Below, piece after piece: positions 2,562 through 55,209 of a stretch of DNA of 64,000 nt. The stretch comes from a virus. The notes under the pieces were generated by a model that saw only the letters and a program-made list of their open reading frames with translations, did no database searches and was not told the origin of the DNA. Both the position numbers and the translations under genes were made by a program. Position 1 is the stretch's first letter; the number at the start of each line of letters is the position of its first letter. Location: the UHGV virus genome UHGV-1375844. One strand, 5' to 3'.

Positions 2562-2814
2562 CCAACTACAACGGTTTCTAAACGTTTCTGAATACTACTA
2601 CCTATTGTATCAATAAGGAATATTTTCATATCAGATGTTTCTGCTTGCGTGACAATGAAAATGCAAATCATTATTCGCTTAAGTCTTGCCCTGTCTGGGA
2701 TTTAAGAGCATAATGTGCCGCCAACAAATGATAGATAAGTCTTTACAACCCTGACCTTTGATGTAATATCAGTAAGCACTTACCAGAGACAAATAAAACA
2801 CGCAGGGTTTAATC

Positions 2815-3195
2815 ATGGCTACCAATGAAACAAAACAAGGTCGCTACGCCGCCTATATCGACTCTCTCATCACCATTTCTCCAAAAAGTCAGGCCACTAT
2901 TGCTAAGGAAATTGGGTACAAAAACCCCAATAATCTATCGCTTATCAAAAGTGGCAAAATTCCTCTGCCGGTGGACAAGGTTCGCCCGTTGGCCAACTCT
3001 TTGGATGCTGATCCAGTACGTCTCATGCTCATGGTTCTCGAAGAGCGTCACCCTGAGCTTCTTGAGTTCTTCCGTGATGAAGGCACAGCTCCGCTTTCCC
3101 AAGACGAAAAACAGGTATTGGATGCTTTTCGTAAGCGTTTCGATGGTCAACAAGGTGCTTCAGAACAGGTCGTCGAGGCCATCAAGTCAATGTGA
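2815..3195 (+). CDS. Putative HTH transcriptional regulator (candidate lysogeny-switch protein)
   Basis: N-terminal segment SQATIAKEIGYKNPNNLSLIKSGK resembles an XRE-type helix-turn-helix; divergent promoter region with 2340..2561; convergent with and adjacent to the integrase; variant of the intergenic palindrome (agtaagcacttac, 2771-2783) upstream. Confidence 0.5.
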   Translation: MATNETKQGRYAAYIDSLITISPKSQATIAKEIGYKNPNNLSLIKSGKIPLPVDKVRPLANSLDADPVRLMLMVLEERHPELLEFFRDEGTAPLSQDEKQVLDAFRKRFDGQQGASEQVVEAIKSM

Positions 3196-4293
3196 GAAAT
3201 TTATACGAATAAGCTCTGTCGCTAGACGATCTCCCTTGAAATTATGGTCTATCTCGTCTAAATCTGGTTGTTCTACGATGGATGCGATGTACGCCGAAAA
3301 TTTACATAAGGCGTCTCGCATTTCATCCATATAGTCGTGACGGTCGTAAACCCGATCTATACCTTCAAGGCTATGGTTCATGATTTTACGAGAGACTTCC
3401 TGATTAATACCCAGGGCAGGGAAATAGCTACGCGCAGTTCTTCGCAGATCGCGTGGGGTGAAAACCTCAACCTCCATCAACTCCGGACGTTCCAAAATCC
3501 TCCGGAGCGCCTGTGATATGGCTACTTTAGACATTGGCATGTCCTTATCGCGTTTCTTGTTTGAGGGCACCAGCCACTGGCTGTCTTTCCCATATTTAAA
3601 CAGTTCCTCGACGCACTTCCTCATCAGCGGGCTTAACGGTAGAGCATGTTGCCTGGCCGATTTATTACGTGTGCCTTGATTCCATACATCACGTTGAAGG
3701 TTGAACTCACTCTTCTTGGCCCGGAGCACTTCATCGGGTCGCCTGGCAGCCACGAGACATAATCTGGCCGCCCACTTTGTCCCTTCGCATACGTTGAAAT
3801 AATCCCAGACGTTCCAAAAAACCCAAACTTCGGCGTCCGTTAGCTTCCGTTCCCGGGGCGTAGGTTTGGCGCCACCAGCGACTTTGTTGAGCGACATATC
3901 GTTCAACGGCGACGTTTCGATGACCCCCTGGAAGGCGCACCAGCCCAAAAACTGCTTCATCAGGGAAAACACACGCCTGCCCATGACGATCTTCCCTTCC
4001 AGAATGAGCGGGTTCACCAGCTGGTTGACGAGAACCCTACTAATGTCACTTACTTTTACATCAGAGATAAAAGGTAAAACATGTATCAAAACACAATGGA
4101 CGGCGATCTCCGGTCGGCGTCTTGTTATGAGTAAAGATAAGCGAGTGAATAACAAGAAGGCATCTGAAAACTTCATGTCGCCACTTACCAGAGAGGCTGC
4201 CATCGCATTCATTTGCGAAGCCCGTTCCAGAAACTCAATCGCTTCTCGTGAGGTGTTTTCGGCTGCGCGTGCTCGATCAAACGAATTTTTCAT
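3187..4293 (-). CDS. int: Tyrosine recombinase / phage integrase (P4-like)
   Basis: C-terminal FTPRDLRRTARSY ... NHSLEGIDRVYDRHDY matches the box II / catalytic Tyr region of tyrosine integrases, but with Arg where the first box II His is usual; 368 aa. Confidence 0.75.
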   Translation of the reverse strand: MKNSFDRARAAENTSREAIEFLERASQMNAMAASLVSGDMKFSDAFLLFTRLSLLITRRRPEIAVHCVLIHVLPFISDVKVSDISRVLVNQLVNPLILEGKIVMGRRVFSLMKQFLGWCAFQGVIETSPLNDMSLNKVAGGAKPTPRERKLTDAEVWVFWNVWDYFNVCEGTKWAARLCLVAARRPDEVLRAKKSEFNLQRDVWNQGTRNKSARQHALPLSPLMRKCVEELFKYGKDSQWLVPSNKKRDKDMPMSKVAISQALRRILERPELMEVEVFTPRDLRRTARSYFPALGINQEVSRKIMNHSLEGIDRVYDRHDYMDEMRDALCKFSAYIASIVEQPDLDEIDHNFKGDRLATELIRINFSH

Positions 4294-4559
4294 AGTCCAA
4301 TCACTTAGTTAGCCGTAACACTGTATGTATAAACAGTATATTAGGCATTGTTTCTTATGGGATCAAGCCTAACGTTACAGTGATTTTACCAATGATTCCA
4401 TACTTAATAGGTATGGAATCATTAGAGGGCATTTTTTTGAATTTTTACCAGTATTTGGGGGGAGAGATTATGGAAACAGTGACCAGTTGCAGAAACGATT
4501 AAAAAAGAGTGGCTAAGCGCGGTAAGCCCAAACCGAATGAAGAGTTACCGCGCGAAATT

Positions 4560-5183
4560 TTAAAAATCTTCCGCTTGTTCGTACCAGTCGCGTTCGGTAT
4601 CCGATTCTATGCGAGTAATTTCAAAATCCTCATCAATAAAATTCCACTTTTCATCACGCCATGACAAACGAACTTTGGCCTCTACATCAAACTCTGTACC
4701 GGAATAAACATGGTCAGGCAGCTGATCGCCCAAATAGTTGAATGCCACCTGCATGTCAAGAATACCCTTTGTTTCATCGTAAGCAGTATCGAGTACCGTT
4801 AGATCATCAATGACGAAACCTTCGGCGTTCGTGGTTGCGATATCTGCTGCTAACTCGTCATCCACGGCCATTTCAAGAGAGAGAAAGGGGCCATTATGAT
4901 AGATAGCTTCTTCGAAATTATTGTCACCAAAAGCGGCCATTAACAAACGAGACTCAAGCGGCGTTTCTTTGGAAACCTTAGTAAGCTCATGATAATTAGA
5001 GAAGTTCGAGTTTTTGGCGATGATCTCTAATGCCTGAGAATGCGTGAGAGAAACATCTGAGCGAGCCAGTTTTTTGGCTTTGGTTTTGATGAGTTCAAGA
5101 CAAGAATATTGTGACATGGCCGTTCTCCAAATTTCTGACGCTTTTGGAAACCGATAGCCTGCTAACCGGACTCCGCGCGTCAC
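4560..5183 (-). CDS. Hypothetical acidic protein (likely start at internal Met, MSQYSCLELIKTK)
   Basis: ORF track; no recognisable motif. Confidence 0.45.
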   Translation of the reverse strand: MTRGVRLAGYRFPKASEIWRTAMSQYSCLELIKTKAKKLARSDVSLTHSQALEIIAKNSNFSNYHELTKVSKETPLESRLLMAAFGDNNFEEAIYHNGPFLSLEMAVDDELAADIATTNAEGFVIDDLTVLDTAYDETKGILDMQVAFNYLGDQLPDHVYSGTEFDVEAKVRLSWRDEKWNFIDEDFEITRIESDTERDWYEQAEDF

Positions 5184-9604: not shown

Positions 9605-9737
9605 TGGTGCCGGTTAACGGACTCGAACCGTTGACCTCTGGCCTAACATCGGATCGTTGTCATTGACCAGCCATGCTGTCTACCGAAGTAGAAACGATGC
9701 TTTGGCTCTCGCGCTCTACCAACTGAGCTAAACCGGC
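9605..9737 (-). tRNA. tRNA-like element with a ~58-nt internal insertion (disrupted or intron-bearing tRNA)
   Basis: Reverse complement starts GCCGGTTTAGCTCAGTTGGTAGAGC (acceptor + D arm) and ends AACGGTTCGAGTCCGTTAACCGGCACCA (T arm + acceptor + CCA), but 79 nt separate the D arm from the T arm; the insert contains a UUCG-tetraloop hairpin (tctac-ttcg-gtaga). Confidence 0.35.
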
Positions 9738-9739
9738 AT

Positions 9740-9814
9740 TGGCGATGATGGGTGGATTCGAACCACCGACCAGTTGATTAACAGTCAACCGCTCTACCAC
9801 TGAGCTACACCATC
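9740..9814 (-). tRNA. tRNA-Asn: tRNA-Asn (anticodon GUU)
   Basis: Reverse complement GATGGTGTAGCTCAGTGGTAGAGCGGTTGACTGTTAATCAACTGGTCGGTGGTTCGAATCCACCCATCATCGCCA folds as a canonical cloverleaf; anticodon loop CTGTTAA. Confidence 0.8.
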
Positions 9815-14101: not shown

Positions 14102-14121
14102 ATAAGTAAGCATCTACTTAT
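14102..14121. repeat. Intergenic palindrome family, copy
   Basis: ataagtaagcatctacttat between primase and the 264-aa gene. Confidence 0.6.
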
Positions 14122-14138: not shown

Positions 14139-15254
14139 CTACACGAGAGCTTTGATGCCAAGCACCTTGCTTTGCAGTTCAAGCTGTCTTGTGTAGGGTT
14201 TCGCACGATAATAGGCTTTGAGGATTTGCTCTGGCGTCGCGTCGCCCGGGTCAAGTCCTTCCTCTCCTAAGCAGGCGACTTTAACGTTGATGCCCAGACT
14301 GGCGAGTCGTCTGGCCGCCGACATCGTGTTGCGGATCGCTTGCTTCTCGCTATCCCACATCATAATGACGTTTCGCAGACCACGGGCCTTCAGTGTCAGG
14401 AACGCGCCCAGCTGGTCTTCTGCATCTTCCGTTGTATTTCCGGATAAGTGCATCCCGAACGTACCTATTGGCTCGACGTACTCTCGCAACGTCTCTTCTT
14501 CGAATATGGCGCGCTTAACCCCCATGACATCAAACGCACCTTCACACACGACGACCGTCTGCTTTCCGACCGCGTTATGGCCGTTGTAGAGAAACTTTCC
14601 GGAGGCTGGCAGCTGCATGGGGAAAAGGTAGCGACGTTCTGCTGTGCCGGTGACATCACGCCCCTGGAATGTCTTCATGACACCATCCAGATCGTAAACC
14701 GGTATGAGAATGCGCATGTCAAACACCTGCCCCTTCACCTGGTCGGTGTAGGGATCGACATACGCGTGCTTGCCTTCCACGCAATAACGAAGGTCAAAGT
14801 ATCTGGCCATTTCCGGCGTTATGAGACGCTTAACGAGATAATCAGGAAGTCGCCCATCGATAGGCAGTTCATAGTGGCGCGGAAGAGCAACTGGCCCCTC
14901 AAGCTCAACACCACTGGATAACACCACTTCTTCTTTCTTCGGCGCCCACCCCTGCGAGATTAAGGCATTCTGAACGTATGCCTCGAAATCCCGGCGTGAT
15001 TTGCCACTGTAGTGCTTGAGAAAAACCAGCTTGTTAAACTGAATCTCTTCGGGGTGATCGCCCGCAAAACATTTACCTACGCCATGAGAGAGGTTGAAAT
15101 ACACTTTCCAGTTTGAGCTGCCGCATACCGGACACTCTTTGATGTTAATTTCTCGTCCGCGCGTACTCACTCCGCCGCGACGATAGATAACGCCTTCAGT
15201 ATCGAGCCATTGTTCAAAATCCAGCTCGGTCAGTAACTCTTTCAGGTCGCTCAC
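14139..15254 (-). CDS. DNA primase (zinc-ribbon + TOPRIM-like)
   Basis: CPVCGSSNWKVYF...GVGKCFAGDHP zinc ribbon; VVVCEGAFDVMG TOPRIM-like acidic motif; immediately downstream of the helicase. Confidence 0.75.
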   Translation of the reverse strand: MSDLKELLTELDFEQWLDTEGVIYRRGGVSTRGREINIKECPVCGSSNWKVYFNLSHGVGKCFAGDHPEEIQFNKLVFLKHYSGKSRRDFEAYVQNALISQGWAPKKEEVVLSSGVELEGPVALPRHYELPIDGRLPDYLVKRLITPEMARYFDLRYCVEGKHAYVDPYTDQVKGQVFDMRILIPVYDLDGVMKTFQGRDVTGTAERRYLFPMQLPASGKFLYNGHNAVGKQTVVVCEGAFDVMGVKRAIFEEETLREYVEPIGTFGMHLSGNTTEDAEDQLGAFLTLKARGLRNVIMMWDSEKQAIRNTMSAARRLASLGINVKVACLGEEGLDPGDATPEQILKAYYRAKPYTRQLELQSKVLGIKALV

Positions 15255-15404
15255 GTTTAAACCTACTTTTTTCAGGCAATATTTTGATTACTCTCGGTTT
15301 TTAGTTACCATAGAGGCTCATGTGTTTTTCTTTTGTGGTTTTGGCAAAAGAAAACTTAAATCTCTGATGGATTAAGGCGTGGAGAGACTTTCCACGCCTG
15401 TTTT

Positions 15405-16745
15405 TTATAAAACATCCATGATTCTTTCGATAAACCGCATTTGTTCCAGGTTCTGTTTGACACGGATGCTCACCCCGCCCTTCTGGTTACGTGAACCAGC
15501 AAAGTAGAGTCTTGCCTCGCCTTTTGCTTCTTCCTCTTCCGTTTTGTTGATAGTGATGACCAGGTCAGCGATACGCACCTTCTCGATGTTGTCTGCTGCG
15601 TGCATCATGGTCGCCACTTCCGATGCCCCACCTTCCCTGTTTGTTTGGGATGCGGTGATGCCGGCAACGTTGTGCTTGTCGTACAGCGCACGAAGATCGG
15701 TGTAAATGCTTCGTATGTTTGCCCGGTCATCACGGAGGTCGTAGCTCGGCCGCATCAGATCGGCATAATCGACAACCACCATATCCGGGATCATGCCATT
15801 TGCCTTCATGCCACCCAGCATACGGTCAAGATCTGCAGGCGATACGCTTCCGGATGGCCGCTCAACAATCCACAAGCTCCCAACCCCTTTCGTCGCCCCC
15901 AGCTCCGCCAGTTTGCGGTGGACGTCGTCGCGGCGCTCCACCAGCTTGGACATTTCCGTCTCGGACAGACGGGCGTCGAAACGGTCTGACAGAATAGAGG
16001 TGTGTACTTCCAGCGACAGATACAGGACGTTGTAACCGGCAAGCGTGGCGTTGACAGAGAACTCACCCATCGCCGTCGATTTACCAGACTTCGCGAAGCC
16101 CATGAACAGCACCATTTCACGCTTGGCCCAGCCTTTCTGGTAAAGCAGTTTATCGAGCAGGGGGAGACCCGTTGTGATGCTGTTTGGCACGTAATCGTCA
16201 GATGCCTCGTACTCACGCGTCTTGTAACGCTCTGCTGACTCAGAGAAGTAATCGTAGATGCCGGTCGCTTCGTTAGAGCCGATTTGCTGGACTTTGGCCA
16301 TGATTGCCATCGCGCCCTGGAAATCGCCCTTCTCCTTCATCTCAGCCGCTTTGATTAGCGCGTCGTCGAACGCCACGCTTTTGGCGAACGTCGCGACCTG
16401 GTCGACCATGTACGCCGTGTCTGACAGCTTCTCAGCGAGAATCCGCTTAAACGCCTCAACAACATCGGGGAACAGCTCTTCGCGGATCGTCTTATCGCGT
16501 TTGGCGCGTTTGAGCATGTCGAGGATGGCCGACGACGAAGGTGCGCTTTTGTACATTCTGTAATAGCCAGACACCATATTCACCAGCAGGGCATTGGCCG
16601 CGTTGGAGAACTGGTTAGGTGCAACCAAATCGCCTGCACGAGTCAGAAACTCATGGTCGCGACAGAAATAGGCTGCGAGCCGGTTCTGGAAGTCGTCATC
16701 GAACTCTTCTGACAACCCTCGTCCTGTGTGGCAAAGTTCGGTCAT
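15405..16745 (-). CDS. Replicative DNA helicase, DnaB-like
   Basis: 446 aa; Walker A GFAKSGKSTAMGEF; RecA-like C-terminal domain; adjacent primase. Confidence 0.8.
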   Translation of the reverse strand: MTELCHTGRGLSEEFDDDFQNRLAAYFCRDHEFLTRAGDLVAPNQFSNAANALLVNMVSGYYRMYKSAPSSSAILDMLKRAKRDKTIREELFPDVVEAFKRILAEKLSDTAYMVDQVATFAKSVAFDDALIKAAEMKEKGDFQGAMAIMAKVQQIGSNEATGIYDYFSESAERYKTREYEASDDYVPNSITTGLPLLDKLLYQKGWAKREMVLFMGFAKSGKSTAMGEFSVNATLAGYNVLYLSLEVHTSILSDRFDARLSETEMSKLVERRDDVHRKLAELGATKGVGSLWIVERPSGSVSPADLDRMLGGMKANGMIPDMVVVDYADLMRPSYDLRDDRANIRSIYTDLRALYDKHNVAGITASQTNREGGASEVATMMHAADNIEKVRIADLVITINKTEEEEAKGEARLYFAGSRNQKGGVSIRVKQNLEQMRFIERIMDVL

Positions 16746-16763
16746 GTGCTTTCCTTTAGTTCT

Positions 16764-16784
16764 TAAACAAATTGTTTTCTAATG
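16764..16784 (-). promoter_or_regulatory. Conserved promoter-proximal near-palindrome, copy 2, upstream of the helicase
   Basis: taaacaaattgttttctaatg, 19 nt upstream of the helicase start. Confidence 0.45.
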
Positions 16785-16805
16785 CTAAAAAAGCCAGATA
16801 GGGGA

Positions 16806-17531
16806 TCAACAGAAACGCCGCGCTTCTTCCAGCTCTTCCGGAAAGTGGGCGTAGATAACTCGCTCAGGCACAACTTCCATGAGCCAGATGGCAGAAAAAA
16901 TTATGCGTATGCGCTTATCCCGGGTGATGCCACGTAAACGCTCCAGAACCCACTCAAAATAGCTTTCCTGAATCGGGTCGTGCTGCATGTCTCCCATATG
17001 CTTAAAACTCACCAGAGAGTCATCCAGACGGGTTACAGCGCGTTTAGCTAACTTCTCTTCGAATATCTCGATTAGCTCTGGCTGCCAGAGATGTTGTGGG
17101 CGAGGTAATTTGTCCCACAACCGGCGTGCAGCTGCGGAGAGAACGGTGGAGATGAAGTAGTCATAAGAGCAGCAATAACGATCTGCGAACTGCCTGGCTT
17201 TCCAGAGAGAAGTCTTATTGGCTGTGGATAGCTCCTGATATGGCAAACGCTTCAGGCCAGTTGTAAACGGTGCTGTCTCGAAGTGTTCACGTCCATGCGA
17301 CAGCATGATGTAGGAGTACTGCCGCTTGTATGCTTCGGTGAACAGACATGTCGCCATTAGCGGGTGCATATCGCGGTAGTCGAACCACTTGGAGTCATAC
17401 AACTCGGCCTCATCCTTACAGCGCGAAAGACCGATGTTTTCGGCCACCCACTTGTCCATGACAGCGGTGTCCCACTCCTTCATGAAGGCGTACTGGTCGT
17501 TGTCGATAGTGTTGAAGAAAATCTGGCTCAT
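16806..17531 (-). CDS. Hypothetical protein (241 aa)
   Basis: ORF track; no motif recognised. Confidence 0.5.
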   Translation of the reverse strand: MSQIFFNTIDNDQYAFMKEWDTAVMDKWVAENIGLSRCKDEAELYDSKWFDYRDMHPLMATCLFTEAYKRQYSYIMLSHGREHFETAPFTTGLKRLPYQELSTANKTSLWKARQFADRYCCSYDYFISTVLSAAARRLWDKLPRPQHLWQPELIEIFEEKLAKRAVTRLDDSLVSFKHMGDMQHDPIQESYFEWVLERLRGITRDKRIRIIFSAIWLMEVVPERVIYAHFPEELEEARRFC

Positions 17532-17544
17532 GTGATCCGCTATG

Positions 17545-17563
17545 GTAGGTAGTTACTTACTTA
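17545..17563. repeat. Intergenic palindrome family, copy
   Basis: taggtagttacttacttat. Confidence 0.5.
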
Positions 17564-17649
17564 TCAAAGTGAGCGAATCATAACGACTGGAGACAGCTTT
17601 TGGAAGTGGCAACTGAAGGGAATGTGTCTGGGAAGCTCGTTGTGAAAAG

Positions 17650-17706
17650 ACCTGCTTCCGTATAAATAATAATAAGTAACTTAGTATTTATATACAGAAG
17701 CAGGTT
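17650..17706. repeat. Long palindrome A (CCTGCTTCCGTATA - AT-rich centre - TATACGGAAGCAGG family)
   Basis: acctgcttccgtata ... tatacagaagcaggt, 14 of 15 arm positions paired, ~27-nt AT-rich centre; second copy at 51708-51765. Confidence 0.6.
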
Positions 17707-17720
17707 ATAAAATCCTTTAT

Positions 17721-18131
17721 CTATTTTTCGATAACTCTTTGTTCAACTTCTTGCATCTGCTTTTCAGTGAGACTAGAAATGTGTTGATTCAGCAACAGAT
17801 TGCGGTAGAAACTTTTTTGAGCCTCCGATAAATCCTGTCGCTTATCAATGTTTCTCAAAGCATTGCCGTAACTCTCGCTGATCGCATCACCATTGAATGC
17901 CTCAATAATGGTTTTCACATTCATAGCCAAGACGCCAAAGATAAAACAACCAGTGTTGTATACCCAGTCTACAACAAACCCTTTGGCGTACAAGAAAGGG
18001 GTTAAAATGTGAAGAATAACCCAAAGCAAAGCGCCAATTATTATTCCAAAAGCAGTTCTAAGCGGATAGCCCAAAAACAGAATATCTATTGCCCGATTTA
18101 AATTCCGACTAAAGAAATCATGATCTGGCAT
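17721..18131 (-). CDS. Hypothetical membrane protein (136 aa), AT-rich
   Basis: Two predicted TM helices; last gene of the ParA operon; start overlaps upstream gene. Confidence 0.5.
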   Translation of the reverse strand: MPDHDFFSRNLNRAIDILFLGYPLRTAFGIIIGALLWVILHILTPFLYAKGFVVDWVYNTGCFIFGVLAMNVKTIIEAFNGDAISESYGNALRNIDKRQDLSEAQKSFYRNLLLNQHISSLTEKQMQEVEQRVIEK

Positions 18132-18762
18132 CTAAAACCCCCTTTCCCAATTCTTCCCCTGGAATTTCTTCCGAGGCAGGGGTATTAAATATTTTACGCC
18201 TTCTGCCGCTTCCACCATCATCGATCTTGTCGATATTATTTTCGATGAACTTTAAAAGCTGTATAGCCTCTGTACTATTGTTGCCGTAAAACCCTTTGGA
18301 AATACGATATGTCAGAACGCGCTCTTTCAGCTCAAGTAAAACAAAGACAACAATCCCGATAATAGTTACAATGGGGCTAAAGCCCCAAAAGTAACCCATT
18401 GAAGCACCAAGAAAAATCATCAGCACCGATAAAAACTTAACCTTAAGGAAGGTTTTTTTCTCATATAAAAGATAAAGCTCGGAAATAGTTTTCCTTTTCA
18501 AAAACTCTTGCTCTTTCTTTAAATTGTCCTCATGTTTTGCTTTTATCTCTTGTAATTTTATTCTGTACTCTTCTGATTTTATATAACTCAATGTATTACG
18601 ATACAAGAAACTACATACCATACCTATCATTGAGCCAATAACAGAAATGACACCTTGGTTTGAAATTCCCAACAACCCCATAACCTTTCCAAAGATCACG
18701 GCGGCTATAATGGCTAACATTAGACCTACGAACCATCCGAAATGTCTATTCAGGAATTTCAT
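18118..18762 (-). CDS. Hypothetical multi-pass membrane protein (214 aa), AT-rich
   Basis: Several hydrophobic helices; K/E-rich coiled segment; composition clearly more AT-rich than flanking genes. Confidence 0.5.
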   Translation of the reverse strand: MKFLNRHFGWFVGLMLAIIAAVIFGKVMGLLGISNQGVISVIGSMIGMVCSFLYRNTLSYIKSEEYRIKLQEIKAKHEDNLKKEQEFLKRKTISELYLLYEKKTFLKVKFLSVLMIFLGASMGYFWGFSPIVTIIGIVVFVLLELKERVLTYRISKGFYGNNSTEAIQLLKFIENNIDKIDDGGSGRRRKIFNTPASEEIPGEELGKGVLDARS

Positions 18763-18766
18763 TATA

Positions 18767-19126
18767 TTAGCCTTTCTTCATCAGCTCGCGCTTGATCTCG
18801 TCTGTGCGCATCGTGACGTCAGCAGCGGTGATCGCCTCGTTCAGTTTCACAATGTCCTCGATTTCCTGCGGCGACTTCTCTGCCAGATGGTAAATGGCTG
18901 CACGAATCACGTCAGAACGGGTGAACTTCTCAAAGCGAGGGATGAATTTCATCATCTCCAGCAGATCGAAGTATTCGTCCTCCAGCGACATGGTACGGCT
19001 CTTTATTTTCTCTTTCCCACGAGTCGGGCGGCCCTGTGGTCTGACTGGCTGGCGCAACGGCGTGCTGTTTTTGGCCGGAGCATCCGGTTCTTTGCGCTTG
19101 GCAAGGTCTCCCATCTTCATGGACAT
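18767..19126 (-). CDS. Small basic protein, candidate ParA partner (centromere-binding, ParG/ParB-like role)
   Basis: 119 aa, basic N-terminus; start/stop junction with parA. Confidence 0.4.
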   Translation of the reverse strand: MSMKMGDLAKRKEPDAPAKNSTPLRQPVRPQGRPTRGKEKIKSRTMSLEDEYFDLLEMMKFIPRFEKFTRSDVIRAAIYHLAEKSPQEIEDIVKLNEAITAADVTMRTDEIKRELMKKG

Positions 19127-19791
19127 TACTCTTCCTCCAGACTCAAGATATAATCAACAAACTGTTCAAACTCGGCTTCTGCCTTCTTGTCGCGTTCGGC
19201 GCCAGTCATTTCAAAGATAGAGCGACCAGCCTCTTCTGCATCATCGTAAACGTTACGGTTGTACAAATTGACCGGTGCAGCTTCGATACCAAACGTCTCA
19301 ACGATTTCTTTGGCGGCCAGAATACGCGACACCTGGGAAGGTAGTGACGGGCACTGGTTGATAACGGCACGTATTTTCACCTTCTCGTTCACATTGCGTA
19401 CATTGTCGATAATCGGGTCGATGTCGCGCAGCGATTTCAGGTCACGACGTTTAGGGCGCAGCGGTATGACGATAACATCAGCCATCAGCATAGCTTGTCG
19501 CTGGATTTCGGAGTCGAAGCCCCCTGCGTCTACAACCACGTAATCGAAGCGCCCCTGAAGCGATTTGAGATGCTTAACGACGTCTTCCTGAACGTAAGCG
19601 AAAGGAATGAGATCGAGATCTTCATTCTGTCGACGGTCTTCGCACCAGCTGGTAGTGGTGCGCTGGATGTCGATGTCGGTAACTTGGATTTTCTTTTTCT
19701 TTTTGACTTTCAGGCAAACCGCTATTTGCTGGGCAACGGTCGATTTACCCGGGCCACCCTTCGTGCCGCCAACCACAATGATCCTAGTCAT
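19126..19791 (-). CDS. parA: ParA/MinD-family partition ATPase
   Basis: Deviant Walker A GGTKGGPGKST at the N-terminus; 221 aa; unusual KKKKKI insertion encoded by an A-rich tract (19681-19700). Confidence 0.75.
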   Translation of the reverse strand: MTRIIVVGGTKGGPGKSTVAQQIAVCLKVKKKKKIQVTDIDIQRTTTSWCEDRRQNEDLDLIPFAYVQEDVVKHLKSLQGRFDYVVVDAGGFDSEIQRQAMLMADVIVIPLRPKRRDLKSLRDIDPIIDNVRNVNEKVKIRAVINQCPSLPSQVSRILAAKEIVETFGIEAAPVNLYNRNVYDDAEEAGRSIFEMTGAERDKKAEAEFEQFVDYILSLEEE

Positions 19792-22838: not shown

Positions 22839-22857
22839 TAGGTAAGCACTTACTTAT
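22839..22857. repeat. Intergenic palindrome family, copy
   Basis: taggtaagcacttacttat. Confidence 0.6.
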
Positions 22858-23941: not shown

Positions 23942-23961
23942 ATAGGTAAGCACTTACCTAT
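23942..23961. repeat. Intergenic palindrome family, copy
   Basis: ataggtaagcacttacctat. Confidence 0.6.
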
Positions 23962-36361: not shown

Positions 36362-36387
36362 CCTGTCAGCGCCTACAAATAATAGTA

Positions 36388-36403
36388 AATAAGCACTTAC
36401 TTA
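36388..36403. repeat. Intergenic palindrome family, copy
   Basis: aaataagcacttacttat between the M-like and L-like genes. Confidence 0.55.
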
Positions 36404-42905: not shown

Positions 42906-42925
42906 ATAAGTATATACTTACTTAT
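42906..42925. repeat. Intergenic palindrome family, copy
   Basis: ataagtatatacttacttat. Confidence 0.6.
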
Positions 42926-49677: not shown

Positions 49678-49697
49678 ATAGGTAAGCACTTACTTAT
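49678..49697. repeat. Intergenic palindrome family, copy
   Basis: ataggtaagcacttacttat between terL and portal. Confidence 0.6.
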
Positions 49698-50956
49698 CTT
49701 GATCCGCCAAGAATAACACGATTTTTAACCGGATACCTACGATGAACTGGATAACCTAATGCATCCGCGCTGTGCTCAATGCCACCACTCTTATCCATAT
49801 CCCGTGAGCCAGGTTTATAAATTACTTTTTCAAGCGAATCGATAAGGTGTTTGCATTTCGGGTCGATATAAAGCCGCGTTTCGCCAGATGCGCTTAACAG
49901 CATACGGTTTACGGCATTCACACGATCCGCTATTGGCGGGTGCTTCTTCGGAAAATCAACCCGTAGAAAACCCTTTTCCTTAAAAATGTCTACGTCTGAC
50001 TCACCACGAGCGTGCTGACGATACGCGCCGGCAGGGTCGGGGAAAATGGTCACATGTGATTTCCATCGCCAGTAACGGCGCTCCAGCTCATCACACACTT
50101 CTGCCGTGTTGGATGAGAAAAGCACCAACTCGTCAACCGCCCACAACTCGCCATTTGGCTGTGGCTGGAGAATGACAGAAGACATCGGATCGATGTTGAA
50201 GTCCTGACCAACCCAGATCGGCAGCTTTGGATTGAACTGCAACGGCTTCACATGCACGCTTCGGTCGAAAGGATAGTAAACACGACCGGACATGTTTTCG
50301 AAGCTGGCCAGGTACTCCTGAGCGAACGACTTAGGGTCCATATCATTCTTCGCGGCTTCGATTTCAGCGGTCGGAACAAACGGAGAGTCAGCAGTAACAA
50401 ACTGCCAGCTCTTCCACTGGCCTTTACGCTGTAGCTCTTTGTTCTGGCCGATCGTCCACAGCTTATGGAACTCAGAGAAGCCTTTCGGCGTACCGATGAT
50501 CAGCGCCCCGCCCCGGGTGGATGACAACGTCGGTCGAAGAACCTTATACCAGGTGTCCGGCTTCATATCCTGAAACTCGTCGAGTACCACGAAGTGAAGC
50601 GCAACACCACGGAGCGTATCGGGCTTATCGGCGCCTTTGAGCGCGATCTCAGAGCCGTTCTTCAGCACGATTGTCATCGTGGTATCGTTTTTCTTACGAA
50701 TCCATTTCCGGGGTAAAACTTCCTGCAGGTCATCCCACAAAATCTGGCGTGCCATCTGATAAGTCGGCGCGACATACCAGACACGTTGTTTTTTCTCTTT
50801 GGCCGCGGCTCGGATAATGGTGGAAATCGACAACCGGGATTTACCCCAGCGTCGACCCGCACATACCACCTTGAATCGATGTGGCGACTGGAAGACTTTC
50901 ATCTGTCCAGAATGCAGCTGTACGAGACTCAGAGACGACGGGATGCTCATAATCAA
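49694..50956 (-). CDS. terL: Terminase large subunit
   Basis: Walker A VVCAGRRWGKS, Walker B-like VVLDEFQDM; 420 aa; overlaps terS by 4 nt. Confidence 0.8.
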   Translation of the reverse strand: MIMSIPSSLSLVQLHSGQMKVFQSPHRFKVVCAGRRWGKSRLSISTIIRAAAKEKKQRVWYVAPTYQMARQILWDDLQEVLPRKWIRKKNDTTMTIVLKNGSEIALKGADKPDTLRGVALHFVVLDEFQDMKPDTWYKVLRPTLSSTRGGALIIGTPKGFSEFHKLWTIGQNKELQRKGQWKSWQFVTADSPFVPTAEIEAAKNDMDPKSFAQEYLASFENMSGRVYYPFDRSVHVKPLQFNPKLPIWVGQDFNIDPMSSVILQPQPNGELWAVDELVLFSSNTAEVCDELERRYWRWKSHVTIFPDPAGAYRQHARGESDVDIFKEKGFLRVDFPKKHPPIADRVNAVNRMLLSASGETRLYIDPKCKHLIDSLEKVIYKPGSRDMDKSGGIEHSADALGYPVHRRYPVKNRVILGGSR

Positions 50957-51594
50957 ACACTCCCATCACTTTCATCGTCCGACGCGTCAGAATCGATTTC
51001 AGCTTCGCTCAGCGCTTCCTCTTCCAGCGACTCAAGCAGTTCATCATCGATCAACTCAGGCTCATCGTCTTCCTTACGCAGCTGCGCAACCTGTGAAGGT
51101 GTAAGTTCGCCAAACACCAGGTTCGGAATTTCATCTTCCTCATTTTCGGCGCGATCCATGCCGAGCGCTTTCGAAGAGATTTCGAAGCACTTGGCCAGTG
51201 TGCCGCTGGCTCGCTGGAGACTTTTAAGGTCATCTTCTATAGCTGCGAGAGGTCTGCCATCCTTTTTGGCAGTGGCAACTTCGTGCATGACCATGCGCCC
51301 GAGTGCAAACGCCCAATCGTCGTAGCGAGTACGCCGCTCTTCAATTTTGTCTGCTCTCGCTTTGGCACGAAGCTCCGCATCGGATTTGAGCGATTCGCGA
51401 ACCATCTTTCCAACAGAGTCAGCGCCCTTCTCTAATCCACGCTTTTTGAAATGTCTGGAGAGCGTTTCACGACGAATGCCGTACTCTTCCTCCAGTTTTG
51501 AGAGCGTATACTCGCCTGAAGTCCACTTCGCTTCGGCTTCTGCCCACTCAGCTGGCGTCAGGCGAGTTTTGGTCTCGTCTTTTTCTACCGTCAT
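50953..51594 (-). CDS. terS: Terminase small subunit
   Basis: 213 aa; N-terminal HTH-like segment, acidic C-terminus; immediately upstream of terL. Confidence 0.6.
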   Translation of the reverse strand: MTVEKDETKTRLTPAEWAEAEAKWTSGEYTLSKLEEEYGIRRETLSRHFKKRGLEKGADSVGKMVRESLKSDAELRAKARADKIEERRTRYDDWAFALGRMVMHEVATAKKDGRPLAAIEDDLKSLQRASGTLAKCFEISSKALGMDRAENEEDEIPNLVFGELTPSQVAQLRKEDDEPELIDDELLESLEEEALSEAEIDSDASDDESDGSV

Positions 51595-51634
51595 AGATCC
51601 CTCTAAAACACGCAGAGCGCATCCTTGCGCCCTC

Positions 51635-51682
51635 TAAACAATTTGTTTAAATCTCTGTCTAACCAATTTGTTTTCTGGGTGG
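51635..51682 (-). promoter_or_regulatory. Conserved promoter-proximal near-palindrome, copies 4 and 5 (tandem), upstream of terS
   Basis: taaacaatttgtttaaatc (51635-51653) and accaatttgttttctgggtgg (51662-51682). Confidence 0.45.
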
Positions 51683-51707: not shown

Positions 51708-51765
51708 ACCTGCTTCCGTATATAATTAATAAGTGACTTAATATTTATTTATACGGAAGCAGGCT
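51708..51765. repeat. Long palindrome B (same family as 17650-17706)
   Basis: cctgcttccgtatata - AT-rich centre - tatacggaagcagg, perfect arms. Confidence 0.65.
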
Positions 51766-51788
51766 CCACATCTGACTCCCAGACCTGC

Positions 51789-52055
51789 TTACATCACCAG
51801 TAACTTGGCCCTTGCTCGACCCAATGCAGTCAGCCCCAGCGTGCGGCGGTGATAGCCTGAATCCCCGCGCTGCCGACACATTCCCTTCTCCACCAGCCCC
51901 TTTTTCACCAGTGCGCGGATAGAGAACTGCATACTCTGCTTGGTCGTTTTGTACGGCAGGACTTCAAGCAGCTCGTCCAGATCAAGCAGATTCCCTCGCT
52001 CGTGCCCTAAATTGATGGTTTTAATGATGTCTTTCTGTTTGTCGGTCAAAGTCAT
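51789..52055 (-). CDS. Putative winged-helix DNA-binding protein (88 aa)
   Basis: Basic C-terminal half; last gene of the ParB-ATPase-GNAT operon. Confidence 0.4.
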   Translation of the reverse strand: MTLTDKQKDIIKTINLGHERGNLLDLDELLEVLPYKTTKQSMQFSIRALVKKGLVEKGMCRQRGDSGYHRRTLGLTALGRARAKLLVM

Positions 52056-52064
52056 GGCAAATCC

Positions 52065-52964
52065 TTATGCCGGTAAAGCAATTTCAAGTGGTTTATCCAA
52101 AGGCTGTTTGTCGAACGCCAGCAGCGGCAGAGTTTCTGGCAACGAGCGACCAAAATCCGGGTTGCGGTACACCCCATATAACGGTGAGGTGAAGCTCAGG
52201 TTATGAATATCTTTGAGTAGCTTCACGATGCTGGCTTCATCCACCAGGCTGTCGGCAATATCCTGAATGGTAGTGCCTCGGTTACGCCCGGCTTTGGCCA
52301 GTGAACTGTTCTTGTGGTAGTCGGCAACCAGATCACGCAGCGCACGACGACGGCGAGATTCGCTCATGGCGAACAGCTCTTTGACGATCGCTTCGTTGTC
52401 GCCAGGGTCGGAACGAAAATGACGCTGGAAGACGCGCAGCGCACTCTCATAGCTCTTCGGACGCTCCGGACGGATGAACTGGAACCCTGCTTTCATGGCG
52501 AACGGGTTGTATTTGCTCATCGATGACTGGATCTCGATGATTGGCCGGTCATGCATCCTGCTAACCAGGTTAATCATTCGATAGGAGACGCCGACACCGC
52601 GATACTGCGTATCCACTACAGAACGGCTGATCACTGCAAAGTTATTGTTCACGTACCGGCCCCAATACTGGTTGGCCACAGTGGTATTGGTCGTTGGCTT
52701 CAGCTTAGGAAACATGCGATGGCGAGGTGCCAGTAGAAGTTTCGGATAGGCCATGACCACGACGCCCACCAGCCGGCCGTCCAGCTCGCAGCGATAATAC
52801 GTGGGCGCGAACGGTTTACCGTCCGTCTTGTAGTGCAGCGACTTCAGCGCGTGCCAGTCTTCAACAGTGCCTTTGGATACGGTCATTCGTTCCAGAAAGT
52901 CCAGATGCCGCGGGAACTCTTCCGGACGGTAGCGTTTGATGATGATGTCTGCCATGTCGATCAC
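52065..52964 (-). CDS. GNAT-fold acyltransferase-like protein (299 aa)
   Basis: VVDTQYRGVGVSYRMINLV matches GNAT motif A (R-x-x-G-x-G/S); SKYNPFAMKAGFQF matches motif B. Confidence 0.5.
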   Translation of the reverse strand: MIDMADIIIKRYRPEEFPRHLDFLERMTVSKGTVEDWHALKSLHYKTDGKPFAPTYYRCELDGRLVGVVVMAYPKLLLAPRHRMFPKLKPTTNTTVANQYWGRYVNNNFAVISRSVVDTQYRGVGVSYRMINLVSRMHDRPIIEIQSSMSKYNPFAMKAGFQFIRPERPKSYESALRVFQRHFRSDPGDNEAIVKELFAMSESRRRRALRDLVADYHKNSSLAKAGRNRGTTIQDIADSLVDEASIVKLLKDIHNLSFTSPLYGVYRNPDFGRSLPETLPLLAFDKQPLDKPLEIALPA

Positions 52965-53215
52965 CTGCGCTCGATATTGGCATTAATGAAATCCAGGCGA
53001 AGAGATTCCATCGCTCCCACCATGACATACGGGCGCCCGCCGTTATGCCAGCAATCAAGAACACTGCCGTCATTGTTGATCATCAGCAGCGCCAGGCTCT
53101 GGCTTTTGCCTTCTCTGGCGTACTGAAGTGCTTCTTCCAGCAGGCGGATGACTTCAACGTTATTGTTGTCAGCCTCTTTCGATGGCTTCAGCTCTACGAT
53201 CTTCAAATCAGGCAT
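52961..53215 (-). CDS. Hypothetical protein (84 aa)
   Basis: ORF track; start/stop overlaps with both neighbours. Confidence 0.4.
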   Translation of the reverse strand: MPDLKIVELKPSKEADNNNVEVIRLLEEALQYAREGKSQSLALLMINNDGSVLDCWHNGGRPYVMVGAMESLRLDFINANIERR

Positions 53216-53846
53216 ATTCCACCTTCACGCGTTCTTTGTAGTGCTTGGTGATCTGCATATCCGGCCGCAGGGCGTTCTTCAGATCTTCGTGTGTCGTCGC
53301 CACCATTACCGTCGCGCCAACCTTACGAGCGGCACGCTGGAGGTTCGACGCAACAACCTGAGCGGTTACACGGTCGAGTACGGCACCAAATTCGTCGGCC
53401 GCCCACACTTTCGCGCCGGACTCGATTAGCTTGGCGATTTTGAGACGGTATTTCTGGCCGTCAGACATTTCGGATGGCTTGCGCACAAAGAGATAGGCGT
53501 CATTCAATCCGGCCATAGACAACAGCCCCAGCGCTTCGCTGGTGGTTTTGCCCAGCTGGTCGATGACGTTAACCTCATTGTCGAAAGCAAAATCATCGAT
53601 TGAGGCCACAGAAAGACCTTCATCCTTCATCTGGCGTTGCAGCTCGCGCAGCACAACGGATTTGCCTGAACCGGATTGTCCGGTGATGTACACAACATCA
53701 CCCTGCTTCACTTCCAGCTCCAGATTGTCGTAAAGCGTCCACTCTTTTTCGTCCAGACCAAGACCGAACGATTCGGCAATTTCCAGCGTTCGCGTGGTTT
53801 TGTTCACGCGGGTCTGGAACGACACGTTGATGGTGTACTTACTCAT
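53208..53846 (-). CDS. ABC-type ATPase (stand-alone nucleotide-binding domain, 212 aa)
   Basis: Walker A GQSGSGKS, signature-like MSDGQKYR, Walker B VWAADEFGA, H-loop-like VATTHEDL. Confidence 0.65.
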   Translation of the reverse strand: MSKYTINVSFQTRVNKTTRTLEIAESFGLGLDEKEWTLYDNLELEVKQGDVVYITGQSGSGKSVVLRELQRQMKDEGLSVASIDDFAFDNEVNVIDQLGKTTSEALGLLSMAGLNDAYLFVRKPSEMSDGQKYRLKIAKLIESGAKVWAADEFGAVLDRVTAQVVASNLQRAARKVGATVMVATTHEDLKNALRPDMQITKHYKERVKVEYA

Positions 53847-54511
53847 GCAGCCAGCTCCCCGGAGGACACTTTCTCCGCATACGCCACGAAAGCGTTCACC
53901 CCGCGCTCTCCCGTGATTTCTTCCATGTGGGCGAGCAAATCCCCAACCACAATGGCAGAGCCAGCAGGAAGCGTTTTAAAGCCCAATACGTCGATGACAC
54001 GGACTTCTTCAGCGGCCACTTCGCGACTGATCTCGGTGTGCTCTTCTTTCTGGCGTTCCGTCTCTTCGCCCAGATCGAGCACCAGAGAGCCGGTTTCCAT
54101 CTCTTCGGTCATGCTGCCGACAAGCACATTCAGTTCACGCTCTTCAAAACCGAAGACCTCGACGTCGCCCAGCACCAGGGATTCCAGTTCCTGCTGCAAT
54201 TTGATGGCGTCGTAATCGATACTGGCAAGGCGGTTGTCTTCCAGACGCTTCGCCTTCACCTCTTCTTCATTCAGATCGTCGCGAACAATGACCGGCACAC
54301 GCTCCAGACCAGCCAGAAGCGCCGCCTCGCGACGACCATGACCAGTAATGATGACGCCGTTCTTGTCGATCGTGATCGGCTGGTCAAAACCGCGCTTTTT
54401 GATGGCGGCAGCCAGATCGCGGATCTGCTGTTCATCATGTTTTTTGGCGTTCATCTCATACGGGATGAGTTCAGCCGGGTTTCGATAGACGATTTCAAAG
54501 TTCTTGGTCAT
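53843..54511 (-). CDS. ParB/Srx-like N-terminal domain protein 2
   Basis: Start at ATG 54511 overlapping the upstream stop (TAATG); GVIITGHGRREAALLAG resembles the ParB arginine-patch motif; acidic C-terminus. Confidence 0.6.
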   Translation of the reverse strand: MTKNFEIVYRNPAELIPYEMNAKKHDEQQIRDLAAAIKKRGFDQPITIDKNGVIITGHGRREAALLAGLERVPVIVRDDLNEEEVKAKRLEDNRLASIDYDAIKLQQELESLVLGDVEVFGFEERELNVLVGSMTEEMETGSLVLDLGEETERQKEEHTEISREVAAEEVRVIDVLGFKTLPAGSAIVVGDLLAHMEEITGERGVNAFVAYAEKVSSGELAA

Positions 54512-55209
54512 TACATACGCTCCTTGTAGTAGTCGACCAGCCACACCAGGGCTTCCCCGGCGTTCTCCATTTCGTTACCGGTGTTGATCCCCTGCTCTTT
54601 GATGATGGTTTTGATGGTGTCGGCGACGCGATCTGACGCATCAAACGTCACTTTGAAGCGCATCGTCTGGTGTTCTGCGCCAACACGCTCCGTTTTCTCG
54701 CGGCGATCGTCGTCAGCTGGCTCATCATCGCCGCGGGAAAGCGCTTCCAGCGCTTCGAGATCAATGGCAGAGGCTTTGGCAAGGGTGGCCGCCATTTCAT
54801 CGTCATAGGGGGCAATATCGGAAAGCCGGTAGTCGATTTCAGACTGGATTTCTTCGATCAGTCGCTGCAAAGCGATCTGATCGTCTTCGCCGTAACGTTC
54901 GTTATCGACAAGTGACATCTGCTTGGCCACCAGGTCGTTGATTTTGCCAACCGAGATGACAGGAACAGTCGAAATTCCCTGCTCTATCGCAGCCCGCCAG
55001 CGATGTTCGCCGCCGAGGATCTGGAAAGTGCCACCGTCCAGCTCACGGGCCAAAATTGGCTTAAAAAAGCCCAGCTTCTCGATAGAACCTTTCAGTTTTT
55101 CGAAGTTTTGCGCCCCCACCGAGTTGGTGTTCCAGGGATTCGGACACAGTTTCGCAACTTCAACCTGCAAAATCGTAATTTTCACATCCATTTTCTTGAT
55201 ACAATCCAT
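54511..55209 (-). CDS. ParB/Srx-like N-terminal domain protein 1
   Basis: FQILGGEHRWRAAIEQG ParB-box-like motif; acidic C-terminus; palindrome copy immediately upstream of the ATG in place of a classical SD. Confidence 0.6.
   Translation of the reverse strand: MDCIKKMDVKITILQVEVAKLCPNPWNTNSVGAQNFEKLKGSIEKLGFFKPILARELDGGTFQILGGEHRWRAAIEQGISTVPVISVGKINDLVAKQMSLVDNERYGEDDQIALQRLIEEIQSEIDYRLSDIAPYDDEMAATLAKASAIDLEALEALSRGDDEPADDDRREKTERVGAEHQTMRFKVTFDASDRVADTIKTIIKEQGINTGNEMENAGEALVWLVDYYKERM

Follow-up and report, generated by a model that had tools for sequence, protein, structure and literature searches.

The closest described counterparts of the palindromes reported here are the operon and moron terminators of temperate phages, intrinsic or Rho-assisted, in which a hairpin with a GC-rich base lies a few nucleotides past the last stop codon, and the REP/BIME elements of enterobacteria, 3'-UTR repeats that protect the upstream mRNA and mark the ends of Rho-terminated transcripts. 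Hairpins and palindromes of other kinds are also known: the early region of phage T7 carries several RNase III hairpins with a characteristic internal loop, the phage-plasmid N15 has dispersed palindromic centromeres, and herpes simplex virus has palindromic origins of the oriS/oriL type. In headful phages such as P1 and SPP1, the known pac sites are single and do not form hairpins.

Here we describe three conserved, concertedly evolving and nested palindromes that lie at the boundaries between modules in a widespread family of phage-plasmids. Two of them (c1 and c2) lie in the window, i.e. the whole 64,000-nt stretch of the virus genome UHGV-1375844 that was analysed; a third (c3) lies outside it. 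The first-pass annotation had reported two copies, both of which are indeed present in the window, while the genome has three; the finding is thus real and wider than first described. Like temperate-phage terminators, the palindromes lie a few nucleotides past the last stop codon and have a GC-rich base, and c1 further shares with them a short U-run followed by a C-rich tract, a drop in expression, and variable upstream cargo genes that share the one element. Ordinary terminators, however, do not show the same arm sequence at three sites with concerted evolution, as these palindromes do. With REP/BIME elements they have in common a repeated, sequence-conserved palindrome at operon 3' ends, transcribed with the upstream genes, and the likely role of a 3'-end hairpin that is not a classical terminator. 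They differ from these in being only three, in occupying fixed syntenic sites on a phage-plasmid, in their AT-rich centre and in their unrelated sequence. We propose, tentatively and at somewhat short of an even chance, that they are transcript-ending or insulating stem-loops at operon boundaries, acting on the transcript. This reading is clearest at c1; a DNA-level role in packaging or replication is possible and is also considered.

Setting and anatomy of the palindromes

The window is from an SSU5-like phage-plasmid; its DNA shares 80-85% identity with Salmonella phage SSU5 and with related phage-plasmids of Klebsiella and Escherichia. Its large terminase subunit (TerL) is 99.8% identical to that of the Salmonella plasmid pSA20094620.2 (IncFIB, 106.6 kb). 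A search with the terminase found 1,034 plasmid records, of which 760 have at least 90% identity; the matched plasmids come mainly from Klebsiella, E. coli, Enterobacter, Salmonella (pHCM2-like) and Yersinia pestis (pMT1). SSU5-like phage-plasmids are thus common, and they carry resistance and toxin cargo. Nearly all genes of the window are on the - strand, and transcription therefore goes from high to low coordinates (Table 1).

Table 1. Coordinates in the window of the palindromes c1 and c2, the gene blocks that they separate and the neighbouring sequence features
Feature	Position	Strand	Content
Gene block after c1	14139-17531	-	241-aa protein 16806-17531, DnaB-like helicase 15405-16745, primase 14139-15254
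Region 3' of c1	17560-17649	-	TCTTTTCAC, then C-rich, G-poor rut-like untranslated tract; CCCAGAC at 17626-17632
c1 palindrome	17650-17705	-	Arms 17651-17664 and 17691-17704; 26-nt AT-rich centre
Gene block ending at c1	17721-19791	-	ParA 19126-19791, then ORFs of 119, 214 and 136 aa
terS/terL	49694-51594	-	Small terminase 50953-51594; large terminase 49694-50956
terS leader, c2 to terS	51614-51676	-	Two palindromic operator/promoter-like motifs 51636-51676; hairpin and U-run 51614-51633
c2 palindrome	51708-51764	-	Arms 51709-51722 and 51750-51763, perfect; 27-nt AT-rich centre
Outer inverted-repeat motif GGTCTGGGAG	51776-51785	-	12 nt 5' of c2 on the transcribed strand
Gene block ending at c2	51789-54544	-	ParB-like protein 53843-54544, two ABC-type ATPases, 88-aa protein 51789-52055

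The first-pass annotation placed a palindrome with GC-rich arms and an AT-rich centre at both sites, and this is confirmed from the sequence, with its coordinates right to within 1 nt. The arms are GC-rich 14-bp segments (CCTGCTTCYGTATA) that flank centres of 26-27 nt, nearly all A+T. The right arm of c1 has one mismatch (TATACAGAAGCAGG on the + strand), which becomes a U.G pair in the - strand RNA. When up to two mismatches are allowed, the arm 14-mer occurs exactly four times in the 64 kb, namely as the four arms of c1 and c2; the chance expectation is 0.29 and none of 100 shuffles reaches four, which bears out the earlier description of the element as repeated. The hairpins predicted for c1 and c2 are far more stable than shuffled controls (z -6.1 to -9.8): the - strand RNA fold of c1 has -23.6 kcal/mol (z -6.35) and that of c2, flanks included, -37.4 kcal/mol (z -9.81). 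Their predicted stems on the - strand RNA are about 25 bp long, with internal mismatches in the AU-rich upper part.

The palindromes are nested within an outer inverted repeat, the partner of which (CCCAGACC) lies 14-24 nt 3' of the palindrome in the relatives, and which is kept there at c1, c2 and c3. By itself, the outer TCTGGG/CCCAGA motif is weak evidence because the 6-mer is common, with 24-28 copies per strand in the window. A search of the whole window against Rfam 15 at the gathering score returned two tRNA genes only, and c1 and c2 match no family; there are just sub-threshold matches to generic long hairpins (miRNA precursors) around c2 and none around c1. The two tRNA genes are neighbours at 9608-9814 (-), the second match being unusually long at 130 nt. 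A literature search found no description of these palindromes.

All three copies are intergenic between co-directional genes, 15-26 nt past a stop codon and 85-190 nt before a start codon. The stop codon at 17721-17723 is 15 nt ahead of c1, and 118 nt separate c1 from the start of the 241-aa gene; at c2 the corresponding distances are 24 nt from the stop codon of the 88-aa gene and 113 nt to the start of terS. Each copy thus sits at the end of an operon, as had been noted before: c1 closes the block of the ParA protein, which has phrog_164 and MipZ/AAA_31 matches (19126-19791), and c2 that of the ParB-like protein and the ABC-type ATPases. The accompanying claim that each lies just upstream of a promoter motif holds at c2 (TAAACAAnTTGTTT, 51636-51676) but not at c1, where the nearest element downstream is a different small palindrome (17546-17563).

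Conservation, concerted evolution and origin of the copies

The third copy stands between an exonuclease/adenine-methyltransferase block, which it follows, and a small ORF with RNase H. Its distance from c2, 23.6 kb further on in the closest complete relative, places it outside the window. A first scan of viral contigs with the arm pattern, in which most arm positions were fixed by design, yielded at least 118 matches and one in the SSU5 record, and all 119 are at the syntenic positions of c1, c2 or c3. The positions of the palindromes are thus conserved in more than 100 related contigs, with spacings of 31-36 kb (c1-c2), 22-31 kb (c2-c3) and 46-52 kb (c3-c1), and the contigs that carry both c1 and c2 are collinear in 13 of 13 cases. 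Because the first scan had preset most arm positions, we re-sampled the loci via neighbouring proteins (terS for c2 and a neighbouring gene for c1). In this unbiased sample, 78 of 78 c1 loci have the element at the shared syntenic position, and it is likewise found at all 73 c2 loci retrieved via terS and at 68 of 78 c3 loci (those with enough sequence to judge). In these genomes of about 80% identity, the arm columns are at or close to 100% identity, which exceeds the conservation of the intergenic flanks and of third codon positions in the neighbouring genes. Watson-Crick pairs make up 92% of the arm cells overall, and six combinations of site and position show two different Watson-Crick pairs, including one change from T-A to G-C. 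Covariation within the clade is weak: as many double-changed pairs as observed turn up in 17 of 500 shuffles.

Within a genome, the centres of c1 and c2 have an identity of 0.905, against 0.873 between genomes, and 1 of 5000 permutations reaches as high a value. They are identical in 7 of 13 genomes, and in several genomes the identity of c1 and c2 extends over 55 nt between unrelated flanks. Thus, c1 and c2 evolve in concert, and we infer that the identity among copies is due to gene conversion and not to a sequence-reading factor. The concerted copies, the long identity between unrelated flanks, the nested terminal inverted repeats and the lack of an Rfam family would all suit a REP- or MITE-like repeat with no dedicated phage function, its copies made uniform by gene conversion and tolerated between genes. 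We consider such an origin quite improbable: a mobile repeat should have many copies, variable sites and insertion polymorphism, whereas the element has just three copies, each match found lies at one of three fixed syntenic sites, and neither copies in other contexts nor target-site duplications were found. Further, the arms are more conserved than neighbouring third positions, and distant lineages show the same design at the terS site.

Among 75 loci, the sequence upstream of c1 sorts into 14 unrelated classes, each of which ends at the palindrome, whereas the other flanks form one class each. Hence, c1 is the exact 3' edge of the main cargo-gene hot-spot of these elements (17706-17720 and upstream), and in SSU5 an extra DUF2971 gene has been inserted right at the edge of the palindrome. 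Such a multitude of flank classes ending at one element is the arrangement of moron genes that share a single terminator.

Two kinds of recombination site were rejected as candidates. The core of a tyrosine-recombinase site of the lox/dif type, with inverted arms of 11-13 bp and rearrangements between copies, is incompatible with the spacer, which is 24-29 nt against 6-8 bp, and with the collinearity of the 13 contigs; CTTCCGTATA resembles the loxP arm (CTTCGTATA). An integron attC site does not agree with the arms (CCTGCTTCYGTATA / TATACRGAAGCAGG), which are without the GTT/AAC of the conserved R''/R' cores (RYYYAAC ... GTTRRRY), nor with the presence of one element per hot-spot and not one per cargo gene; the literature yielded one paper that mentions SSU5 with attC, unrelated to the palindromes.

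In more diverged lineages, the copies carry other arms. In Morganella, c2 and c3 have the common arms AAGCCGTGyTCCCATA...TATsGGAGCACGGCTT, and those of the Xenorhabdus type share GCCTTGCTCCCATA...TATGGGAGCAAGGC. Thus, the arms change on both sides between lineages, yet stay alike among the copies of one lineage. The centre is 24-29 nt long in the SSU5 clade and measures 52, 57 and about 110 nt in the Morganella and Xenorhabdus lineages. This variable length, together with arms that remain complementary while changing on both sides, fits pairing of the arms with each other, and they are therefore less likely to bind a rigid dimer of fixed spacing. Alpha- and beta-proteobacterial relatives have inverted repeats with GC-rich arms and an AT-rich centre upstream of terS, with unrelated arm sequences. 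In distant relatives, the repeats kept specifically at this position have spacers of 70-110 nt and look more like a DNA site, which counts against an action on the transcript. As distant relatives keep repeats at this position, and Faunimonas has a single copy, next to terS, the terS-adjacent copy looks ancestral, with c1 and c3 as later copies. The GC-rich arms are absent from the Acinetobacter relatives; the same repeat family was rejected there, the complete plasmid pDETAB1 having AT-rich palindromes only and no GC-armed repeated one. A search of viral contigs for arms of the Methylocystis type gave no matches.

The proximity of c1 to the downstream end of the ParA operon and of c2 to that of the ParB-like genes would be expected of a parS centromere, bound by the partner of ParA or by the ParB-like proteins and dispersed as in N15. 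That the copies serve in partition, as one of the earlier suggestions had it, is very improbable and finds no backing in the data: there are no tandem repeat arrays, with one palindrome per site, and the spacing of the half-sites is not conserved but ranges from 24 to about 110 nt. Moreover, c3 is near no par gene, isolated half-sites do not occur elsewhere in the window, and the element is missing from the very Acinetobacter relatives that retain the ParA and ParB-like genes.

Two further features of the diverged relatives were observed. In those of the Morganella and Xenorhabdus types, a motif CACTGCGG(AA) lies just 3' of the palindrome at c2 and c3, and is possibly a promoter element of the next operon. 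The large terminase of Xenorhabdus hominickii (2678-4924) is one ORF of 748 aa with an insertion of about 330 aa after ...KGADKPD, which begins with CFDDETDILTVDGW, contains LAFIGFYIAEGC and looks like an intein with a LAGLIDADG-type homing endonuclease.

Proposed ending of transcripts at the gene-block boundaries

On the transcribed strand, c1 is followed by the tail UCUUUUC, of which UCUUUU is kept in the relatives, and then by a C-rich, G-poor tract (C 31%, G 14%). The C-G excess of this tract (+0.167) is at the 98.7th percentile of the 90-nt windows of the window and averages +0.21 in 47 unique relatives; taken together, the tracts after c1 and c3 have excesses of +0.17 to +0.21. At c2, there is neither a U-run nor a C-rich tract (C-G excess -0.03), and a U-run is likewise missing from c3 in the closest relative of the window and from the palindromes of the diverged lineages. 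The first-pass annotation saw no U-run after either copy, which is right for c2, whereas at c1 it missed the TCTTTTC on the transcribed - strand because the wrong strand had been examined. Its verdict that the copies are not classical intrinsic terminators stands for c2 in the same way; for c1 termination was dismissed too early, in view of the UCUUUUC tail, the C-rich tract and the collapse of expression in the relative Cyrano. A consensus terminator scan of the window called neither c1 nor c2, and it revealed no other terminator in the gap after c1. Usual intrinsic terminators have a stem of 5-14 bp and a loop of 3-8 nt, while the stems predicted here are about 25 bp long with an AU-rich, interrupted top.

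The evidence on expression concerns the orthologue of c1 in one relative, the Cyrano lysogen, at the level of genes. RNA-seq values there are 50, 89 and 55 for CYRAN_28, CYRAN_29 and CYRAN_30 of the ParA operon and 6.2 for CYRAN_31 past c1 (PMC9928086, supplementary file 2), and one log2 column has 10.4 before c1 and 2.6 after it (PMC9928086). Expression in this lysogen, at gene level, thus falls 9- to 200-fold across c1, while the genes flanking c2 and c3 are silent on both sides (PMC9928086). A drop in RNA-seq coverage, which had been named beforehand as a check to make at both sites, is hence seen for c1, in its Cyrano orthologue and at gene level, and the silence around c2 and c3 leaves nothing to fall there. 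In Cyrano, c1 starts 24 nt after the stop codon of CYRAN_30 and is the sole strong structure in a gap of 193 nt. We infer that the hairpin itself causes the drop at c1 and that c2 and c3 act in the same way.

Under the proposal of operon-boundary stem-loops, the RNA of each co-directional gene block would have a copy as its last 55 nt, and would there form a hairpin, about 25 bp long, GC-rich at the base and AU-rich at the top, which terminates the transcript or sets its 3' end. At c1 and c3, the ending may come about via the U-rich tail and/or via Rho acting on the following C-rich tract, with the hairpin shielding the 3' end. The next block would then rely solely on its own regulated promoter, so that the replication genes (c1), the terminase and late genes (c2) and the RNase H block (c3) are insulated from what precedes them. 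Specifically, c1 would shield the lytic replication genes from the ParA operon and the cargo genes that are expressed in the lysogen. It thus probably stops cargo and partition genes from driving lytic replication genes, and would thereby bear on the silence of the element and on the harmless addition of new cargo.

We count in favour of a terminator role that in one diverged lineage, where the c3 site retains the right arm only (TATAGGAGCCAGGC), a canonical intrinsic terminator (AGAGATTCAGGCAC-TTAC-GTGCCTTAATCTCT, then GTTTTT) follows directly after it, as in a functional replacement. In contrast, the arms shared by the three sites count against plain terminators, which need no identical arms. 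Since the arms are shared and co-vary by lineage, the terminator reading needs an added assumption, either gene conversion or a factor that reads the sequence.

The non-Watson-Crick pairs of the arms show a bias towards wobble pairs on the sense strand at c1 and c2, which is suggestive only: the ratio of G.U to A.C pairs on that strand is 35:3 at c1, 9:1 at c2 and 8:10 at c3, and the count by independent classes is 11 versus 5 (p = 0.21). The sense RNA folds better than its complement in 24 of 25 c1 and 24 of 32 c2 sequences. As a proof of selection at the RNA level, strand asymmetry was rejected: it looked strong in the pattern-selected sample, with its preset arm positions, but in the unbiased samples it holds at c1 and c2 and not at c3, and it is not significant when independent classes are counted.

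A hairpin in the transcript could also act by being cut. In RNase III-type processing, a stem of about 25 bp in the polycistronic RNA would be cleaved, which would part the messages on either side and set their stability without termination. The predicted stems, at above 20 bp, would be long enough for this, the position is intercistronic, and c2 and c3 are without the tails of terminators. As at the early T7 sites, several similar long hairpins lie between genes of one strand in a single genome, and cleavage with decay of the downstream fragment would give the expression drop at c1 as well. However, the upper stem is AU-rich, mismatched and variable in length, c1 and c3 bear tail features of the terminator type, and the long AT-rich spacers of the diverged lineages are left unexplained; the sequences are also unrelated to those of T7, and the characteristic internal loop is a trait of the latter. 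On balance, processing of this type, which the first-pass annotation had also proposed, is a viable candidate but appears unlikely.

Possible roles in packaging, as DNA hairpins and in sequence-specific recognition

Because all copies share the arm sequence and the site beside terS looks ancestral, DNA-level and factor-dependent readings stay in play. The foremost of these at the DNA level is a pac site, in which the small terminase TerS would recognise the palindrome and TerL would begin headful packaging with a cut within or close to the AT-rich centre, with c2 as the original site and c1 and c3 as secondary copies. Much as in the pac sites of P1 and SPP1, c2 is just upstream of terS/terL, has symmetric motifs around an AT-rich centre and contains the start of a sequence record: the linear GenBank record of SSU5 (NC_018843.1) starts and ends inside c2, about 9 nt from the dyad, at the junction ...CTAAGTGACTTATTA|AATATATACGGAAGCAGG.... 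A contig of Photobacterium ganghwense likewise ends (1-30) in the AT-rich centre of the c2 equivalent. Distant relatives keep a repeat with GC-rich arms and an AT-rich centre at exactly the position upstream of terS, with unrelated arms, Faunimonas has the terS-adjacent copy only, and an arm sequence common to all copies of a lineage is expected of a site that is read by a protein.

Against packaging, there are three copies, two of them far from the packaging genes, and each is a true long palindrome, unlike the P1 and SPP1 sites; no phage is known to use three pac sites. Although the Cyrano record starts 1 nt from the start of SSU5's, it is the plasmid pLF82 re-annotated and re-oriented to SSU5, so that SSU5 offers the only original record start. 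Assemblies often break at hairpins, and the record and contig ends in c2 or its equivalent may be either true DNA ends or such breaks. The ends of long metagenomic contigs coincide with no copy, and the variable length of the centre is at odds with a fixed cutting geometry. TerL has Terminase_6N/Terminase_3 domains and is nearest to P74-26 TerL and T4 gp17, not to the cos enzymes of the lambda/HK97 kind. A role of the copies in packaging, raised in the first-pass annotation, has thus become a small chance overall: it is possible for c2 alone, which adjoins terS and holds the SSU5 record start, and does not extend to c1 and c3, which are not near terS. A cos site, which the starts of the SSU5 and Cyrano records had suggested, was rejected, given the three copies, the re-oriented pLF82 behind the Cyrano record and the long contigs that do not end there, and the family of TerL, too, therefore makes it unlikely. 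A literature search on the termini of SSU5 found nothing.

A near-perfect palindrome with an AT-rich centre favours extrusion, and the copies might accordingly act as DNA hairpins or cruciforms in lytic replication or recombination, either as an origin that unwinds at the AT-rich centre or as the place where the element's own SbcCD/Mre11-Rad50-like nuclease makes a programmed break that leads to recombination-dependent replication. In keeping with this, c1 adjoins the helicase/primase block and is a recombination boundary at the cargo hot-spot, c3 adjoins exonuclease and RNase H genes, SbcC/SbcD-like proteins are encoded by the element, and the strand bias, being tolerant of G.T pairs, would also suit a hairpin on one DNA strand. 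The herpes simplex oriS/oriL origins are comparable in their AT-centred palindrome, their inverted conserved boxes and their three copies per genome; the palindromes described here are situated between co-directional and not divergent genes. We regard a DNA hairpin as very doubtful, as no initiator-binding repeats were recognised, GC skew has no inflection at c1 or c2, and the 13 collinear contigs with c1 and c2 give no sign of rearrangement at the sites. Loops of 50-110 nt, as present in the diverged lineages, extrude poorly, the tight spacing to the upstream stop codon is left without explanation, and nothing specific speaks for a cruciform origin, a candidate of the first-pass annotation.

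There is a modest chance that the phage-plasmid encodes a factor of its own that reads the stem sequence-specifically, be it in the RNA or in a DNA hairpin after extrusion. This would explain why the arms are shared within a genome and change on both sides between lineages, the concerted evolution of c1 and c2, and the terS copy being the oldest. The three copies would then constitute one regulated system, i.e. a switchable set of terminators or insulators that is opened on induction or, alternatively, a signal spread over several sites at which packaging or recombination-dependent replication starts. If a dedicated factor does read the copies, or if packaging or replication starts there, they would offer handles for the control of induction and for engineering.

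Several other elements were observed around the palindromes. The terS leader contains, past the promoter-like motifs, a terminator-like hairpin and U-run (51614-51633, -), and distant relatives have equivalent hairpins ahead of terS. By analogy with lambda pR'-tR', it suggests that the late operon may be under antitermination control. The operator/promoter-like palindrome TAAACAAnTTGTTTTCT, with instances of about 17-28 nt at 2245, 16765, 19827, 51636, 51660, 60495, 61222, 62176 and 62769, sits upstream of ParA, the helicase, terS and a gene cluster at 60-63 kb, and probably serves either as a phage-specific promoter element or for the binding of a master regulator.

Finally, a family of small palindromes of the form TAAGTAAG-NN-CTTACTTA occupies short intercistronic gaps on the - strand, at 49679-49696, 42907-42924, 36386-36403, 22839-22856, 23943-23960, 17546-17563, 14103-14120 and about 10 more sites; their distance past the preceding stop codon is -7 to +27 nt, and that to the following start codon 11-50 nt. 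They may act as hairpins in the intercistronic RNA or be bound by a regulator. Related motifs occur in very distant relatives, including Acinetobacter pDETAB1 and Faunimonas, and the apexes of c1 and c2 match the same motif within 4 mismatches.
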